Positions 13,346 through 30,112 of a DNA stretch of 44,603 nucleotides are shown here, piece after piece (within the stretch, counting starts at the first letter, position 1; each line of letters begins with the position of its first letter). The translations under genes and the position numbers were made by a program. Below the pieces are notes generated by a model. It had not been told where the DNA came from. It made no database searches and worked only from the letters and a program-made list of their open reading frames with translations. Source of the DNA: an uncultured Candidatus Saccharibacteria bacterium (GTDB lineage Bacteria > Patescibacteriota > Minisyncoccia > Phycocordibacterales > UBA9973); assembly GCA_964385945.1 (NCBI GenBank), contig CAYLQJ010000002.1, positions 1 through 44,603 of the forward strand. Direction: 5' to 3'.

Positions 13346-13805
13346 AATCTATATACTTTATTTCAATACCCAATTCTTCTGCTGTTTCGTGCTCCCAGAT
13401 AGCGCCTTTGGAACTTTGCCAATTGGGTAAAAAATAAAAAGTTTTGACTTTGCCAGACTTAAAAATTGGCAAATAAAAATCATTCATAATACTTTGATAA
13501 ACTTTTTCTTTATCTTGCTCTTCTGCTTTAAATTTTTGAATAGTTTCTTCGAAAGGCATTTGGTCAAAAATATTTATATTTTGTGATTGTAATTTTTTAA
13601 TATTTTGATTAAAAAAATCTAAGTTCTTTTCTATAGAATTAAAACCTCCATTAGTAACAGGTCCGCAAACTTGGCCTACAGGCAAAGGGATCCTATCAAT
13701 AATCCTTTCTGCAATAATAAAAAGATCAGGAATATTTTTAGCATTCGCTAAATCTTCCCAATCTTTTTCTTCCCAATATTTTAAAGTTATTTCACTAAAA
13801 TTCAT
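13344..13805 (-). CDS. Hypothetical protein, possibly DUF4406 / nucleoside 2-deoxyribosyltransferase-like
   Basis: VCGPVTNGG...NIFDQMPFE... and the C-terminal YFLPNWQSSKGAIWEHETAEELGIEI resemble the DUF4406 pattern (ISGPxTG ... LPGWxxSxGAxxExxxAxxLG), recalled from memory. The ORF-track start 13907 would include a terminator hairpin (13861-13879), so ATG 13805 is preferred. Confidence 0.4.
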   Translation of the reverse strand: MNFSEITLKYWEEKDWEDLANAKNIPDLFIIAERIIDRIPLPVGQVCGPVTNGGFNSIEKNLDFFNQNIKKLQSQNINIFDQMPFEETIQKFKAEEQDKEKVYQSIMNDFYLPIFKSGKVKTFYFLPNWQSSKGAIWEHETAEELGIEIKYID

Positions 13806-17887: not shown

Positions 17888-17909
17888 ATTGGTTTATTAT
17901 AGCAAAAAT

Positions 17910-20463: not shown

Positions 20464-20469
20464 AGGGAT

Positions 20470-20478
20470 ATTCTAGCA
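20470..20478 (-). promoter_or_regulatory. Extended -10 box of pheS (leaderless geometry)
   Basis: The minus strand reads TGcTAGAAT, then 6 nt (atccct), then ATG 20463. Confidence 0.35.
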
Positions 20479-20516
20479 AATCCTAAAGAGAGATGCGAGC
20501 GTAGAATTTTGCTCTT

Positions 20517-21555: not shown

Positions 21556-21584
21556 AATATACTCTCAAAAAAGCATTTTTGCAA
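21556..21584 (-). promoter_or_regulatory. Sigma70-like promoter of trhO
   Basis: Minus strand: TTGCAA (21584-21579), 17 nt, TATATT (21561-21556). Confidence 0.45.
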
Positions 21585-21594
21585 GAAATAATTT

Positions 21595-22154: not shown

Positions 22155-22179
22155 ACTCTTGAGGCCTTGCCTAAAGAGT
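22155..22179. repeat. REP-like hairpin, copy 1 (overlaps the transposase stop codon)
   Basis: ACTCTTGAGGC-ctt-GCCTAAAGAGT: 11-bp stem with one G/A mismatch. Confidence 0.8.
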
Positions 22180-22833
22180 TTTATCGTAATTAATCCAGTC
22201 AAAAATTTCAGTATTAAAAGCTTTCTTAGTTGGGAAATAGTTTGGAAAATTTTCTAAATTTAATATCTTTTTCTCAGTTCTGTCTATTTCTAAAAAATCA
22301 ACATAACTAGAATATAAATAATTAGAAAGATAATCTAAAGATTGTTTTTTGTTTTTTATACCCCTTTCTTTCCAATCTTTTTGTATCAACTTAACAGGAT
22401 TTAAATGAATATAAGAAAATATATATTTTAAATATTTATCATTCTTTATATATTGAGCTTTAAATTTACCTTCGAATAAACTACCAGTTCTTTTATATTT
22501 AAGATTAAAATACATAACATAAGCAGTAGAAAGTTTTTGCATAAATCGACTAACCCCATTTTCTACAAGAGGTGTTATTAAAATGTGAAAATGATTTGGC
22601 ATTAGACAATATGAACCGACAGCAACTAACGGACTTTGATTTGATCTGTTATAAACAGAAACACCTTTTAAAGAGTCAGAAAAATTAAATTTATCTTCAT
22701 TATTTAAAGCATACAATAAATCTCTAAACCTTAAATAATCATTTTTATCTAAAAATATTTCTTGCTTACTATTTCCTCTGTTGTACAGATGATAAAACTC
22801 TCCAATTTCAAATTTTATATTTCTAATAGACAT
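22171..22833 (-). CDS. REP-associated tyrosine transposase (IS200/IS605-like Y1 HUH family)
   Basis: HUH motif in CLMPNHFHILITP. Catalytic-Tyr region YIFSYIHLNPVK. Size 220 aa. Confidence 0.8.
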   Translation of the reverse strand: MSIRNIKFEIGEFYHLYNRGNSKQEIFLDKNDYLRFRDLLYALNNEDKFNFSDSLKGVSVYNRSNQSPLVAVGSYCLMPNHFHILITPLVENGVSRFMQKLSTAYVMYFNLKYKRTGSLFEGKFKAQYIKNDKYLKYIFSYIHLNPVKLIQKDWKERGIKNKKQSLDYLSNYLYSSYVDFLEIDRTEKKILNLENFPNYFPTKKAFNTEIFDWINYDKTL

Positions 22834-22855
22834 AATTATATTATATACCCAACTT

Positions 22856-22880
22856 ACTCTTGAGGCAAGGCCTAAAGAGT
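22856..22880. repeat. REP-like hairpin, copy 2 (upstream of the transposase)
   Basis: ACTCTTGAGGC-aag-GCCTAAAGAGT: same arms and same mismatch as copy 1, but the loop is reverse-complemented. Confidence 0.8.
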
Positions 22881-22918
22881 AATATTATTCAAAGTCAAAA
22901 TCCCCTTTTGCAAGAAAT

Positions 22919-22972: not shown

Positions 22973-23884
22973 TTAATTGGTTTTTAATTTTAAAATTTTT
23001 AAAGAAATTATCCTATAAGATAAAACTCCTATAATTCCCCCAGCAAACATACCAACGAGAACAGAGTCATAACTGTAGCCGACAATTCCCCCTATTAAAC
23101 AATTAATCCCAACTAACAATCTTATATCAGAATGAATTAAGATGAATAAATTTTTGAAAAAATTTATTACTATCCAAAAGTAAGGTGTTGTATTCTTTGC
23201 TAAAAACTTTAAAAATAAAAATATATAGCAAGAAGTCATGACAATAGAAATCAAAGGCAATAATAGATAAAAAATAAAGAGTTTGCTTTCTTTTTTATCA
23301 ATTAAATTAACTATTCTATTCAAACGCCAGAAATTAAATATTTTTTTATCATTAACATCATCTTGGTACGGAAAATAAAAATTCATAGCTACAAGCAAAG
23401 AAATAATTTCTGAGAATATGCCGCAGACTAAAAGAAAAGCAAATAAAAATATTGATATTTTAACAAAAAATGAAAAACTAAAAAAAACTACCCCAACATA
23501 AAGAATCCCAATTAAATTTAAAATAATTCTTAAAATCAAAATCAAATTGGGAAGTTTCAGATTTGCTTTTGATTGTTTCCAAGCTTTTGGTATAGCTTCT
23601 TTTACTTTTTGGTAATCGTAGGTTAGATAACCTGCAAATCCTCCTATTAAAATTCCAACCCACCATAGTAAGCCAAAATTAATAGATAACAATGTACCAA
23701 TACCTGCTCCAATAAAACAAGATAAAAAAATCATTACAGAATTACTAGTTCTCATGTTTATTAAATTTTCAAAGATTAATAAATATATATTCAAAGTCAT
23801 TAAAACACAGATCAGGGCTTTTTGCAATAAATTGACTAACATCATAGAACAAGTTAGACTGAACAAAGTTATTAGTTTTTTCAA
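22973..23884 (-). CDS. Hypothetical polytopic membrane protein with glycine-zipper-like segments
   Basis: Many hydrophobic helices. GAGIGTLLS...GILIGGFAGY near the N-terminus and LIGGIVGY...GMFAGGIIGVLSY near the C-terminus. The ORF-track start 23884 is a TTG and the true start is uncertain. Confidence 0.5.
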   Translation of the reverse strand: MKKLITLFSLTCSMMLVNLLQKALICVLMTLNIYLLIFENLINMRTSNSVMIFLSCFIGAGIGTLLSINFGLLWWVGILIGGFAGYLTYDYQKVKEAIPKAWKQSKANLKLPNLILILRIILNLIGILYVGVVFFSFSFFVKISIFLFAFLLVCGIFSEIISLLVAMNFYFPYQDDVNDKKIFNFWRLNRIVNLIDKKESKLFIFYLLLPLISIVMTSCYIFLFLKFLAKNTTPYFWIVINFFKNLFILIHSDIRLLVGINCLIGGIVGYSYDSVLVGMFAGGIIGVLSYRIISLKILKLKTN

Positions 23885-23967
23885 AAGAGAAAATCCTAAA
23901 ACTAATCTCTTTTAAGAAAAGAGAAAAAGTTCTTTGAGGTTTGGTATTTTCAAAAGTGATATTGTAT

Positions 23968-24086
23968 TGAGTGCTACGAACACTCTACCATTATGAGTTT
24001 TAACTCACCAATATCAAAAAAACAGGAGAACTGAAACATCTAAGTACCCTGGAATCCGTACTTGCTAATATGTACGGATTTTTTAT
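23968..24086 (+). ncRNA. Candidate small RNA: orphan 23S rRNA domain-I-like fragment ending in an intrinsic terminator
   Basis: 24024-24052 reads AGGAGAACTGAAACATCTAAGTACCCTGG. The core matches the highly conserved 23S segment recalled from E. coli (GGGGAACUGAAACAUCUAAGUACCCC). A TGaTATTGT box lies at 23957-23965 and a terminator at 24053-24086. There is no rRNA 5' end or downstream 23S sequence. Confidence 0.4.
24053..24086 (+). terminator. Plus-strand intrinsic terminator
   Basis: Perfect 9-bp stem AATCCGTAC / GTACGGATT (24053-24061 / 24072-24080), 10-nt loop, then TTTTTTATTT. In the minus orientation no U-tract follows the hairpin. Confidence 0.7.
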
Positions 24087-27082
24087 TTCAAAATTAGATT
24101 TTTAGAGAGTTTGCAATATTCACATTCATCTGATTTTCCGCCCCAAGATTTAAAATTACATTTCATATTTACCCATTCCCCACCATCAAGATTATTTACA
24201 TAGTCAGTTATATCTCTTTTTAATAAATCTATTTTCTCTTCATCAATATAAGTAGAATAAATAGCGTTCTTATCCCCGTCTAATGCTTCTAAAAACATAA
24301 GTCTCAAAGACTCCACCTTTTTACCTTTTTCGGCCCCATTGATAAGGTAGGCATACATAGCTAGCTGACGCATATATGAGGAAAGTCTTCCATCTTCGTC
24401 GACTTTCTCTATTTCATTTTTAGTTTTAGGTTTACCAGTTTTAAAATCAGTAACAGAAATATTCCCGCTAACATCTCTTTCTGTTAAGTCCAACTTTCCA
24501 TACATCAACAAATCTGGGAATTCTACATCACGAAATTGCACTGACCGCTCAGATACATAATCAGTCTCTAAATTCTGATAGTACTTTTCTATCCAATTCT
24601 TTACAGCTTTAAACGCAACCTTCTCGATGCGAGCGAATTCCTTTTCGTCATTCACTCCTTCTTTGAGAATCTCTTTTGCGATAATAGATTTGATATCTTC
24701 ATTTTTAGGTAAGGCTTTATTCTTTAAAATGAATTCTATAGTAGAATGCACCGCTGAACCGAGCGCAAGAGAAGTTCCTTTGACTTCAGGTAATTTCAAG
24801 AAATTTCTAAAATACCACTTCCAAGGACATTCATAAAAGTTATTTAGCATCGAGACCGTAATCTTGATATCTTTATAATTCTCTCTGACGAATGATTGAA
24901 CCTCTTCTAGAATATCCCCTTCTACTTTCTCTATCACGTTAGTGAATATTTTTGGTCCGTAAGTTTTGTTATTTAAAATCTCTTCCTCGGTGTCCGCTTT
25001 GTTTTTCTTAATGAAATGCACTTCAGGTAATTCTCTAATAATGTTTGCGATCTCCATTTCGGATCCGTTATAATTTTCATCAGCATAAGACATCACGCAG
25101 TTCTCCCTAGCTCGAGTAATAGCTACGTAGAGTTCTCTTTTAGCGGATTCCACATCGCGTTCTTTGATATGTTCTTTTATTTTCTCAGGTAAGGCAAAAT
25201 TATTTTTCTTTTCACTCATGAGAGTTTCTTCATTCATATGAGCAATCCAAACATTTTTATACTCAAGTCCTTTGGACTTATGAAGAGTCATGACTTGGAT
25301 ACCAGAGTTCCCTCCAAAAGTAGCCAGGCTTAGATGATTGCCGTAGTTCTCAAGTCTTTTAAAGTAATTCAAGAAATCCGAAAGTTTTGCATTTCTATTT
25401 TTCTGTTCAAAAATCAAACTAGTATGAATAAAAGTTCTGACTACTTCTACGTTTTCAAGCAAGATAGTATGAGTCTCAGATTTATCTATTAATAATTCAT
25501 TACCTACATGACTAACAATGCTCGAGATACTCTCTCCTCCCTTCAAGACCCAACTCTCTAAAACCTTACCCCATTTTGCAATATTATTATCTCCACTAAA
25601 AAGACCTCCGTCTTTACCATAAGATACAAGCTCTTCTATGGTTATTTTGTCGGGTTTAGTACTTTTCATAAATTTATGAGCCTCCATAGGATCTATCCCG
25701 CTCGTATAGTCGAGCAAAGATTCAGCGATTAAGACAGAGTTAAATGGATCAGCTATTATATTTAATATTCTCAGGAAACTATAAGATTGTTTTAAATTAA
25801 ACAAAGCTACACTTTTACCAGATGATACCGGCAAGCCCATATCAGAAAGTATATTGATAGCATTACGCACGTGATAATTCTTGGGTACTAAAACGGCGCA
25901 CTCTTTAGGGTCTACTCCTTCTCCTATTCTCTTTGTAAAGTGTAATCCAGCGCCCAATATCTCGTCACGTGGAAAAGAATATTCAAAAAGACCAATCTCT
26001 TCTTCGTTAGTTAATTTATTATTACTATTTAATTTTTCTTTAGAAATAGAACTTTCTAAAAGATCATCAGCCAAAGCTAAGATTTTAGCAGTTGAACGAT
26101 AATTCTCGAGCAAAGTTATAAGTTTGGCATGACCAAAGAAAGTAGCGAATTCTTCAAAATAAGAAAGTCGTGCTCCAGAGAAACCATAAATCAATTGCCG
26201 ATCGTCCCCTACCACAAAAATATTTGGACTATCTTCTCCACCCCAAACTCCTTTCAAGAAATTATTCTGCACACCGCTTGAATCTTGATGCTCGTCGACT
26301 AGTACATACAGATAATTCTCTTTAATTTCTGCCCTGACGTCTTCGTATTCTTCGACTAGCTTAACTACATATTCTAAGACATCATCATAATCCATGAGTG
26401 AAAGAGACTTCTTTTTATTTTCATACATCTCATAGAACAAAACTACCTCTTTGGTTTTCTCTAAAGCTTCTATTTTCTTTTCAATTTCTTTTTTCAATTT
26501 ACCCTTACTCTCTCCGCGAGTCGAGATACTATCCGGATCATTCTCCAAGAATTTAATATCATTCTCAACATAGGAAAGGAATTCTCCCGGGGTGAGTCTC
26601 TCTCTTTTCAAAATAGAAATTAGACTCTTAAGGTCATTAAAATACATGGTCGGGTTACCACGAGGACGCAAATAATTCCATTCCCGTTCCTCTAGAATTT
26701 CATCCACCAAAAAAACAGCTTCATCTTCTTCGAGTAGCTTCGGTATAGTATCAAAATCCAAAAGTGCAAAATTCTTCTCGACTATCTCAATTGCGAAAGA
26801 GTGAAAAGTAGAAATACGGACGTCGTTCGCGACAGGTCCGATATACTGAAGAAGTCTATCTTTCATAGCTTTGACTCCCGAACGAGTAAAAGTCAGACAG
26901 AGTATACCGTCAGCACCGACTTGAGTTTGTTTTAAAATGTTACCAATACGCAGAGCCAAGATCTGCGTCTTGCCTGTACCTGGACCAGCCACTACCATAA
27001 CAGGTCCTTCTAGAGAATCCACTGCATCCTTCTGAGCAGGGTTTAGTTTTTTGTATTCATTTTCAAATGGTAATTGAGACAT
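24083..27082 (-). CDS. UvrD/PcrA-type superfamily 1 helicase fused to a C-terminal PD-(D/E)XK (Cas4/AddB-like) nuclease domain
   Basis: Walker A VVAGPGTGKT, DExx LVDEHQDS, motif VI-like YVAITRARE. Nuclease block GKLDLTERD...VTDFKTGKPK...QLAMYAYL. Cys pattern of one upstream (YECPWKWY) plus C-x11-C-x2-C at the C-terminus. Confidence 0.85.
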   Translation of the reverse strand: MSQLPFENEYKKLNPAQKDAVDSLEGPVMVVAGPGTGKTQILALRIGNILKQTQVGADGILCLTFTRSGVKAMKDRLLQYIGPVANDVRISTFHSFAIEIVEKNFALLDFDTIPKLLEEDEAVFLVDEILEEREWNYLRPRGNPTMYFNDLKSLISILKRERLTPGEFLSYVENDIKFLENDPDSISTRGESKGKLKKEIEKKIEALEKTKEVVLFYEMYENKKKSLSLMDYDDVLEYVVKLVEEYEDVRAEIKENYLYVLVDEHQDSSGVQNNFLKGVWGGEDSPNIFVVGDDRQLIYGFSGARLSYFEEFATFFGHAKLITLLENYRSTAKILALADDLLESSISKEKLNSNNKLTNEEEIGLFEYSFPRDEILGAGLHFTKRIGEGVDPKECAVLVPKNYHVRNAINILSDMGLPVSSGKSVALFNLKQSYSFLRILNIIADPFNSVLIAESLLDYTSGIDPMEAHKFMKSTKPDKITIEELVSYGKDGGLFSGDNNIAKWGKVLESWVLKGGESISSIVSHVGNELLIDKSETHTILLENVEVVRTFIHTSLIFEQKNRNAKLSDFLNYFKRLENYGNHLSLATFGGNSGIQVMTLHKSKGLEYKNVWIAHMNEETLMSEKKNNFALPEKIKEHIKERDVESAKRELYVAITRARENCVMSYADENYNGSEMEIANIIRELPEVHFIKKNKADTEEEILNNKTYGPKIFTNVIEKVEGDILEEVQSFVRENYKDIKITVSMLNNFYECPWKWYFRNFLKLPEVKGTSLALGSAVHSTIEFILKNKALPKNEDIKSIIAKEILKEGVNDEKEFARIEKVAFKAVKNWIEKYYQNLETDYVSERSVQFRDVEFPDLLMYGKLDLTERDVSGNISVTDFKTGKPKTKNEIEKVDEDGRLSSYMRQLAMYAYLINGAEKGKKVESLRLMFLEALDGDKNAIYSTYIDEEKIDLLKRDITDYVNNLDGGEWVNMKCNFKSWGGKSDECEYCKLSKNLILK

Positions 27083-27088
27083 ATCTAT

Positions 27089-27094
27089 ATTATA
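27089..27094 (-). promoter_or_regulatory. -10 box of the helicase-nuclease gene (leaderless geometry)
   Basis: The minus strand reads TATAAT, then 6 nt (atagat), then ATG 27082. Confidence 0.35.
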
Positions 27095-27100
27095 GCGTAA

Positions 27101-27140
27101 AAAATAAAAAGCCCTACTTCGTTAAAAAACGAGTAGGACT
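27101..27140 (-). terminator. Intrinsic terminator of the 27166-27603 gene
   Basis: About 11-bp stem (one mismatch, one bulge) at 27110-27121 / 27130-27140. The minus-strand RNA is followed by UUUUUAUUUU. Confidence 0.6.
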
Positions 27141-27165
27141 TTCAAATTGTTAATAATAAAAACAA

Positions 27166-30016: not shown

Positions 30017-30103
30017 GGAGGGTTCGCATAGTGGTCTAGTGCACCATCTTGGAAAGGTGGCAAGGTGTTAAAACCTTCGAGGGTTCAAATCCCTCACCCT
30101 CCG
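30017..30103 (+). tRNA. tRNA-Ser (anticodon GGA), class II with long variable arm
   Basis: Cloverleaf by hand: acceptor GGAGGGT/ACCCTCC, D-arm with GG, anticodon stem CCATC/GGTGG with loop TTGGAAA. Variable stem AAGGT/ACCTT, T-arm GAGGG-TTCAAAT-CCCTC, discriminator G. CCA is not encoded. Confidence 0.93.
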
Positions 30104-30112
30104 CAAAATATC

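Follow-up and report, generated by a model that had tools for sequence, protein, structure and literature searches.

We describe a small non-coding element in a 44,603-nucleotide (nt) stretch of DNA from an uncultured bacterium (positions 1 to 44,603 of the forward strand of contig CAYLQJ010000002.1, assembly GCA_964385945.1), the whole of which is referred to below as the window. The element lies on the plus strand between two genes of the minus strand, namely a hypothetical membrane open reading frame (ORF) that ends at 22973 and a UvrD-type helicase gene with a PD-(D/E)XK nuclease domain (24083-27082; assigned by Pfam and synteny), which is convergent with the element and is its constant neighbour. 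A first-pass annotation of this DNA, made from the sequence alone, had noticed a fragment of 23S ribosomal RNA (rRNA) arranged like a small transcription unit. Our analysis gives good support to regarding the element as a paralogue, degenerate and truncated on its 3' side, of the first part of a 23S rRNA gene (promoter, leader, boxB, boxA and nt 1 to ~215) with a terminator behind it, and suggests that it probably encodes a small rRNA-mimicking RNA rather than being plain debris.

Relatives of the locus were reached through homology of the helicase. Two related contigs have a homologous element at the corresponding site, where it lies downstream of the helicase gene in convergent orientation: L004, whose helicase shares 87% amino-acid identity with that of the window, and L005 (82%; NCBI metagenome-assembled genome GCA_041675085.1), the latter element being present also in L148. 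The comparisons below involve only three distinct element sequences, i.e., those of the window, L004 and L005.

Results

A copy of 23S rRNA helix 11

On the plus strand, positions 24024-24052 read AGGAGAACTGAAACATCTAAGTACCCTGG, a faithful copy of helix 11 (H11) of 23S rRNA. The 23S identity of this stretch, proposed in the first-pass annotation, is borne out by its matches to the 23S gene in 5426 of 5426 complete Escherichia coli genomes (31 nt at 93.5% identity, 29 of the 31 nt agreeing with E. coli 23S) and by a hidden Markov model (HMM) of 103 real 23S 5' regions, which aligns 24023-24051 with an E value of ~4e-9 and, in the window version, aligns H11 alone. The H11 21-mer occurs once in the window, compared to 0.00 occurrences expected from shuffled sequences. 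Together with a linker of seven A's (A7) the copy occupies 24014-24053, its stem pairing C24023-G24026 with C24048-G24051 around the loop GAACUGAAACAUCUAAGUAC, and the same hairpin is predicted in L004, in L005 and in an orphan 23S fragment on contig L130 that is described below.

The element is not an rRNA gene, in agreement with the first-pass annotation, since the large subunit (LSU) rRNA covariance model of Rfam (RF02541) has no match anywhere in the window at its gathering score and, within 23800-24200, has no match at E <= 10 either; as positive controls, the model scored 476 bits on L138, 54.6 bits on L130 and 2673 bits on L153. The only Rfam family near the site was RsaJ (RF01822), at 17.1 bits compared to a gathering score of 100 (E 0.072), which we judged to be a chance match. 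The 5'-domain motifs GAUGAAGGACG and CCGAAUGGGG, sought upstream of H11 by nhmmer with real 23S 5' regions, were found neither in the window nor in L004. The window version is without all 5'-domain motifs except H11, in keeping with the earlier observation that the next conserved upstream box and the 23S 5' end are absent. Downstream, the similarity to 23S stops at the terminator hairpin, as was also noted: the HMM alignment ends at 24051 and the terminator stem begins at 24053.

Anatomy of the element

The unit spans ~23832-24088 on the plus strand (~250 bases), about twice the length first proposed. The extent of ~110 nt is too short, for further upstream there is a promoter-like site, then a hairpin in the leader, another that resembles boxB, and a boxA; in the alignment of the window, L004 and L005 conservation begins ~190 nt upstream of H11.

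A consensus scan places the promoter-like site at 23832-23860, with a -35 hexamer TTGACT (23832-37), a 17-nt spacer and a -10 hexamer TAGACT (23855-60). The hexamers are kept as TTGACT/TAGACT in L004 and TTGACT/TACACT in L005 while the spacer varies, and the site stands back to back with the minus-strand -35 box (TTGCAA) of the neighbouring gene. We infer that the TTGACT-17-TAGACT site acts as a promoter. It is followed by a leader with a conserved hairpin (23867-23906), in which AGUUAUU (23867-23873) pairs with a 3' strand ending at 23903 according to RNAalifold of the three sequences; 3 of the 13 pairs are changed on both sides, and one U·G pair fits the plus strand only. Visual inspection shows that TTAGTTTT (23872-79) and AAAACTAA (23898-23905) are also able to pair. 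Between the promoter and boxA, L004 and L005 are identical at 100 of 124 positions. The next hairpin, CTCTTTT-aag-AAAAGAG (23907-23923), was read from the sequence and is followed by five A's and then boxA; the corresponding stem of L004 reads GTCTTT/AAAGAC, and that of L005, which includes a U·G pair, reads GTCTT/AAGGC. We call it boxB-like by position only.

The antitermination motif of rRNA operons (rrn) known as boxA normally renders RNA polymerase resistant to termination (PMC3177189, PMC10250234). At 23929-23947 the element carries a motif of this type, GTTCTTTGAGG then TTGGTAT, which occurs once in the 44.6-kb window compared to 0.02 occurrences expected. The real rRNA loci used for reference, both for 23S and for the spacers, came from a scan of contigs with AGAACTGAAANATNNAAGTACCC, an ordinary 23S variant in Flavobacteria and Gammaproteobacteria; the scan yielded at least 120 such loci, with no Patescibacteria among the matches listed. 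In these loci the 16S-23S spacer just upstream of the 23S gene, 212-560 nt before H11, reads GTTCTTTGACATATTGGTAT in Bacteroidota and GCTCTTTAACAATTTGGAAA in Gammaproteobacteria. The element thus shares the boxA core, with GTTCTTTGAGG and TTGG compared to GTTCTTTGACATATTGG or GCTCTTTAACAATTTGG in real spacers, and it holds G2, C5 and U6, the boxA positions that are critical for NusB-NusE binding (PMC3177189). In the nhmmer profile search boxA is collinear with H11, being a weak match when taken alone (E 0.064).

The extended -10 box that had been proposed at 23957-23965 is indeed there (TGaTATTGT, the sequence reading TGATATTGT; TGATAGTGT in L004). As a promoter it fares less well, for it is not conserved in L005 and would leave the perfectly conserved boxA outside the RNA; we regard it as an alternative proximal promoter that is less likely to be the real one. 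The distal promoter is favoured, and would yield an RNA of ~220 nt (~330 nt in L005) from a predicted 5' end at ~23867 to ~24084; use of the proximal box would shift the start to ~23972.

The two small hairpins described earlier upstream of H11 are confirmed, their correspondence to the preceding 23S helices being one of position only. Hairpin 1 (23969-23985; GAGTG at 23969-73, loop ctacgaa, CACTC at 23981-85) stands at the place of 23S helix 9 (H9), with which any homology is likewise suggested by position only, and reads GAGTTG/CAACTC in L004, where an insertion on both strands adds one T:A pair. Hairpin 2 (23994-24007; TGAGT at 23994-98, loop ttta, ACTCA at 24003-07) stands at the place of helix 10 and shows one compensatory change in L004, from G-C to A-U. 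A 13-codon plus-strand ORF that begins at 23994 was considered and rejected, since it is not conserved and L004 reads ATG TGA.

The intrinsic terminator (24053-24088) consists of a 9-bp stem, AATCCGTAC (24053-61) with GTACGGATT (24072-80), around a 10-nt loop, and a U6AUUU tail; our terminator scan, with its loop limit of 8 nt, missed it. The hairpin is followed by TTTTTTATTT, and the tail overlaps the stop codon (24083-85) of the convergent helicase gene. Its earlier recognition holds good in the relatives, where a terminator is kept by compensatory changes or by a wholly different stem: L004 shows two fully compensatory pairs, and L005 has an unrelated strong hairpin with U7. The predicted fold of the plus strand of the element is better than that of shuffled sequences (z = -3.75), and 0 of 200 shuffles equalled it. 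At the level of sequence signals, therefore, the element has what a stand-alone small RNA (sRNA) would have, a promoter-like site and a terminator kept in three lineages.

Conservation among relatives

The element is 82% identical between the window and L004 (207 of 252 positions), compared to 51% at the four-fold degenerate sites of the adjacent helicase gene, where random expectation is 32%. The conservation is uneven. The boxA block (23929-23961) is identical at 33 of 33 positions and the A7-H11 block (24014-24053) at 40 of 40, the two hairpins between them at 69% and the terminator at 76%, so that the two stretches free of any difference, 33 and 40 nt long, fall on boxA and H11. In L005 the H11 stem is CUGG/CCAG in place of CAGG/CCUG, an exchange of A-U for U-A that keeps the fold, and the other changes in H11 affect two unpaired bases only.

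Third codon positions in the last 60 helicase codons are identical to L004 at 38 of 60 (63%) and to L005 at 42 of 60 (70%), while in the rest of the gene the fraction is ~0.56-0.65 for L004 and 0.52-0.70 for L005, i.e., there is a slight excess at most near the element. Since the 3' end of the helicase gene is not unusually similar, a recent recombination tract is unlikely.

Three intergenic regions elsewhere in the window (27083-27165, 20464-20516 and 17888-17909) are also 85-98% identical to L004 and L005, where four-fold sites are only ~50% identical. Non-coding DNA in this clade is generally under strong constraint, and the element is conserved to the same degree as other functional non-coding DNA, not more.

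Origin from the 5' end of a 23S gene

The origin of the element is best seen in L005. Here, the stretch between boxA and H11 aligns to 23S helices 4-7, nt ~46-110 (nhmmer, E 5e-6), and matches nt 46-110 of a Sphingomonas 23S gene (BLAST in 7.3 Gb of sequence, E 4e-6), a position that Rfam confirmed. The distance from boxA to helix 4 is 105 nt, compared to ~115 nt in real operons. The distance from helix 7 to H11 is 13 nt, compared to ~60 nt in real 23S, from which it follows that helices 8-10 (H8-H10) were lost in L005. In the window and L004, ~79 nt holding hairpins 1 and 2 lie between boxA and H11, and H1-H8 are gone. Because L005 has boxA at native spacing from 23S nt ~46-110 and then H11, the family is derived from the 5' end of a 23S gene. 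The earlier suggestion of debris from an rrn rearrangement accordingly fits the origin, as L005 keeps 23S nt ~46-110, but it does not fit the pattern of conservation. No link was found to intron homing, the other event that had been suggested. A BLAST comparison with phage and plasmid collections gave, for the window element, only short H11 matches to rRNA, and it bore out the 23S nt 46-110 segment of L005.

Distribution

Two independent metagenome assemblies (L001 from ENA and L002 from JGI) are 100% identical to the window across the region. The contig is therefore not chimeric here, which disposes of a concern raised in the first-pass annotation. The closest homologues of the helicase are annotated as Candidatus Paceibacterota, Nomurabacteria or Patescibacteria. 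It is well supported that the host is a Paceibacteria-like bacterium of the candidate phyla radiation (CPR) and that the element is ancestral to a narrow clade (helicase at least 82% identical). No copy was found in relatives at ~70% helicase identity, where the helicase gene is directly followed by other genes. A covariance model built from the window and L004 was run over 166 kb of related loci; it detected no additional copy, and it aligned L005 incorrectly.

A search of metagenome contigs for H11 followed by a T-run gave 15 matches, of which the only orphans were L144 (the same contig as L005) and L130, the remainder being real 23S genes with insertions or chance matches; the same pattern had no match in viral contigs. 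L130 (UPTN01050612.1, minus strand, ~373-523) is an unrelated AT-rich contig on which an orphan 23S fragment (LSU positions 46-232, 54.6 bits) directly follows a 115-amino-acid ORF and is followed by an intrinsic terminator. It keeps GAUGAAGGACG intact and lacks H8 and H10. Its 3' boundary, shared with our element, is partly an ascertainment effect, as the search pattern demanded H11 and then a T-run. The L130 lineage was followed through a neighbouring hydrolase to a sole relative, whose contig ends before the site.

Two other groups of pattern matches deserve a brief description. Contigs L138 (1-861, minus strand) and L131 carry a real 23S gene that is enlarged by two insertions, one of 80 nt within helix 10 and one of 99 nt directly behind helix 13, which adjoin the point where the orphan 23S fragments end; a promoter-like TTGACA-17-TATTAT lies ~420 nt upstream, after an ORF, with tRNA-Ala further upstream. 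The gut metagenome contigs L133, L134 and L141 carry a long perfect palindrome centred on GAACTGAAATAAGAAAGTACC...GGTACTTTCTTATTTCAGTTC, a chance match to the pattern that is unrelated to rRNA.

Genomic neighbourhood

The first-pass annotation had pointed to a RayT transposase nearby. Such a gene (RayT/Y1, IS200/Y1 type; 22171-22833, minus strand) does lie ~1.1 kb from the element, in a separate cassette (22155-22880) that forms no part of the element. The cassette is bracketed by palindromes that resemble repetitive extragenic palindromic (REP) sequences, at 22155-22179 and 22856-22880, of the form ACTCTTGAGGC(NN)GGCCTAAAGAGT. These differ in sequence from the hairpins of the element, none of which recurs in the window. 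We considered the element as a REP/RayT unit and rejected this, as its hairpins are not repeated and do not flank RayT; moreover, L004 has the element without RayT or other cassettes, which shows that the element does not belong to the RayT unit. The same REP-like palindrome is found beside RayT in L005/L148 (L005 ~13375-13400), which makes a REPtron-like unit in a Patescibacteria genome.

The sequence TTTTGCAAGAAAT occurs only three times in 44.6 kb (21577-21589, 22906-22918 and 23820-23832), each copy forming the -35 region (TTGCAA, minus strand) of the rhodanese/UPF0176 gene, of RayT or of the membrane ORF. It seems that the promoter was duplicated with each inserted cassette, and the gap between the helicase and rhodanese genes is a hot spot of insertion whose cargo differs from lineage to lineage. 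The only RNA gene recognised in the window by Rfam and ARAGORN is tRNA-Ser(GGA) at 30017-30104 on the plus strand.

Discussion

We take mimicry of rrn signals to be the best reading of these results. According to this reading, the element would be transcribed from the plus strand as a stand-alone RNA of ~220 nt that is separate from the ribosome, and selection would act on the two perfectly kept signals, boxA, the loading site of NusB-S10, and the H11 hairpin. The RNA might serve as a decoy that binds or titrates factors recognising nascent pre-23S rRNA, such as NusB-S10 and an H11-binding protein or assembly factor, and in a bacterium that has only one rRNA operon the titration might tune the synthesis of rRNA or the assembly of the 50S subunit. 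Among the 50S proteins, bL28 may contact H11. Its role would be accessory rather than essential. We propose this accessory sRNA, derived from the rRNA operon, mimicking its signals and possibly acting as a decoy, tentatively, as a proposition that may well turn out either way. A more specific version, in which a trans-acting "mini-rrn" captures NusB-S10 with boxA and an early 50S-assembly or H11-binding protein with H11 and thereby sets a threshold for antitermination or assembly, is doubtful on present evidence. There is precedent for the mimicry of rRNA substrates by small structured RNAs in the 23S-methyl motif and the leaders of ribosomal-protein (r-protein) genes (PMC1950547).

Several observations weigh against a functional mimic. 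The element is absent from L003, L146/147 and L150, whose helicase genes are 92-95% identical to that of the window at the nucleotide level, and from L151, whose helicase gene is 94% identical to that of L005. The empty sites read GCAAGAAAT-gaatagtgg-ATTTTTTATTTC, and as the filler is similar to the terminator of the window in its loop and 3' arm (AATATGTACGGATTTTTT), they are deletions from the -35 box into the terminator; at least two independent deletion events must have occurred among close relatives. Having been lost in four close lineages, the element is dispensable. Within the element, different internal parts have been deleted in different lineages, and L005 holds a drifted copy, GAUAACGAGCG, of the universal 23S motif GAUGAAGGACG, both of which look like decay. 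The overall identity of 82% is not exceptional, as short intergenic regions in the clade are 85-98% identical. In the covariation control 57 of 500 shuffles do as well as the real alignment, a comparison of two or three sequences that has little power. Gene conversion from a real rrn leader is a possible source of the similarity. Finally, the neighbours (helicase-nuclease, membrane ORF, RayT, CYTH and rhodanese genes) include no adjacent rRNA-related gene, and when we looked downstream on the plus strand for the gene of an rRNA-binding protein, we met only the helicase gene, which is convergent, at its 3' end.

Many of these observations are what one would expect if the element were a non-functional relic, i.e., a decaying partial duplicate of the 23S 5' end, an explanation that we consider rather unlikely and yet the main rival. 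The similarity among lineages would then result from gene conversion with the real rrn copy (promoter, leader and boxA) or from recent spread by recombination in the flanks, and the promoter and terminator would persist only because uncontrolled transcription into the helicase gene would be harmful. The lineage-specific losses (H8-H10 in L005, H1-H8 in the window and L004), the drift of a universal 23S motif in L005, the two or more independent clean deletions among close relatives, the narrow distribution without copies at ~70% helicase identity, the small number of sequences (two or three) behind the covariation and the general conservation of intergenic DNA in the clade all agree with it. 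What a relic does not readily explain is the identity of 40 of 40 positions in the H11 block and 33 of 33 in the boxA block, unexpected from drift when neutral identity is 51%. Nor does conversion account well for H11: an island of 30 nt with no homology on either side is too small to be converted efficiently, and the L005 copy differs from the universal sequence at two unpaired positions, the change in its stem being compensatory. Beside the element, the third-position identity of the helicase gene is raised slightly at most and does not amount to a recombination tract.

Another possibility, which appears unlikely, is that the element acts at the level of DNA or transcription only, either as a promoter-terminator insulator that separates convergent or divergent genes or by way of boxA-modified read-through that would provide antisense transcription into the helicase-nuclease gene coupled to growth rate. 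The arrangement of the locus is suggestive in this respect: the -35 box is back to back with that of the minus-strand gene beside it, the tail of the terminator shares positions with the stop codon of the helicase gene, no neighbour other than the helicase is constant, and boxA makes RNA polymerase resist termination (PMC3177189, PMC10250234). However, such a role leaves the faithful copy of H11 unexplained, the strong terminator is kept by compensatory changes as if transcription were meant to stop, and relatives without the element retain the same flanking genes and promoter.

The strand of the element is addressed by the promoter-like site and the hairpin/U-tract terminator, kept on the plus strand in three lineages, and by the G·U pairs of the leader hairpin and of the L005 boxB-like stem, which would be A·C on the minus strand. 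These signals support a plus-strand unit. The first-pass annotation had also considered the opposite orientation. The minus strand would then be functional as the 3' untranslated region (UTR) or terminator of the helicase mRNA, or as the 5' UTR of the next gene, with a 22-nt anti-23S stretch. In its favour, H11 read in reverse complement gives a hairpin with U7 behind it in both the window and L004, and the minus strand also folds below shuffled sequences (z = -2.64). The U-tract is missing in L005, however, where the loop changes would also weaken antisense pairing with 23S, the downstream minus-strand gene varies by lineage (membrane ORF, rhodanese or RayT), and the leader and boxB-like G·U pairs fit the plus strand only, so that we consider a minus-strand function very improbable.

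The least probable explanation, which we can hardly credit, is that the locus encodes the 5' fragment of a split 23S gene as a trans-encoded piece of the ribosome (like 5.8S rRNA or 5' fragments generated by intervening sequences, IVS): L005 has, at a near-native distance from boxA, 23S-like nt ~46-110 and H11, insertions are frequent in the 23S genes of CPR bacteria (PMC9297842) and the unrelated contig L130 carries a fragment of 23S nt 46-232 ending in a terminator, but the window and L004 are without every conserved 5'-domain motif except H11, universally conserved positions are changed in L005, and an essential piece of rRNA would not be lost as the element has been at 92-95% helicase nucleotide identity.

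Mimicry of rRNA is a classic means of balancing the components of the ribosome, and the mimics known are leaders that act in cis and copy the structure of rRNA. The element described here is, by contrast, a true paralogue of the rrn front end that includes the antitermination signal, set up as its own terminated unit in a tiny genome with a single rRNA operon and very little spare DNA. If it is functional, it would represent a new mode of regulating ribosome synthesis and offer a handle on ribosome biogenesis in CPR bacteria, which are not yet genetically tractable. If the mini-rrn decoy in particular were true, it would be the rRNA-level counterpart of mimicry by r-protein mRNAs, arising from a true rRNA paralogue and acting in trans. 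If the element is only a relic, it tells us that partial copies of the rRNA operon arise in CPR genomes and can look conserved, and such copies can mislead rRNA-based binning or annotation.

Among known systems, the 5' end of the 23S gene with its antitermination leader (boxB-boxA-boxC; RF02541) is the closest, having promoter, leader hairpin, boxA, 5' domain and H11 in the same order. The sequence and fold of H11 are identical to those of real rrn, the boxA core and TTGG are as in real spacers, and L005 keeps nt ~46-110. Unlike a real 23S gene, the element ends at nt ~215 with a terminator and is without more than 90% of the rRNA; the window version has no 5'-domain motif apart from H11 and no Rfam LSU match, and the element is dispensable. 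The 23S 5' fragments generated by IVS and the 5.8S rRNA of eukaryotes are released from one contiguous gene, retain every conserved motif and are indispensable parts of the ribosome. The predicted transcript of the element resembles them as a short separate RNA corresponding to the 23S 5' end; the element differs in that it stands at a separate locus, is degenerate and is dispensable. RsaJ of Staphylococcus aureus (RF01822), an sRNA specific to that species and without known function (PMC2790875), bears a weak local resemblance, namely UGAACAUCUAAAUAC and then a terminator.

The r-protein leaders and the 23S-methyl motif (PMC1950547) are likewise small structured RNAs with a terminator hairpin that are thought to imitate an rRNA site recognised by a protein. 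Those leaders act in cis, ahead of the gene whose product binds them, and have a structural likeness to rRNA only, whereas the element has no downstream gene on its own strand, is a true sequence homologue (paralogue) of rRNA and carries boxA. With rRNA pseudogenes and orphan fragments such as L130, which also has a terminator, the element shares being a partial rRNA copy outside the operon. Unlike plain pseudogenes, it has a promoter, boxA, H11 and terminator that are conserved well above neutral sites, with compensatory changes in the stems.

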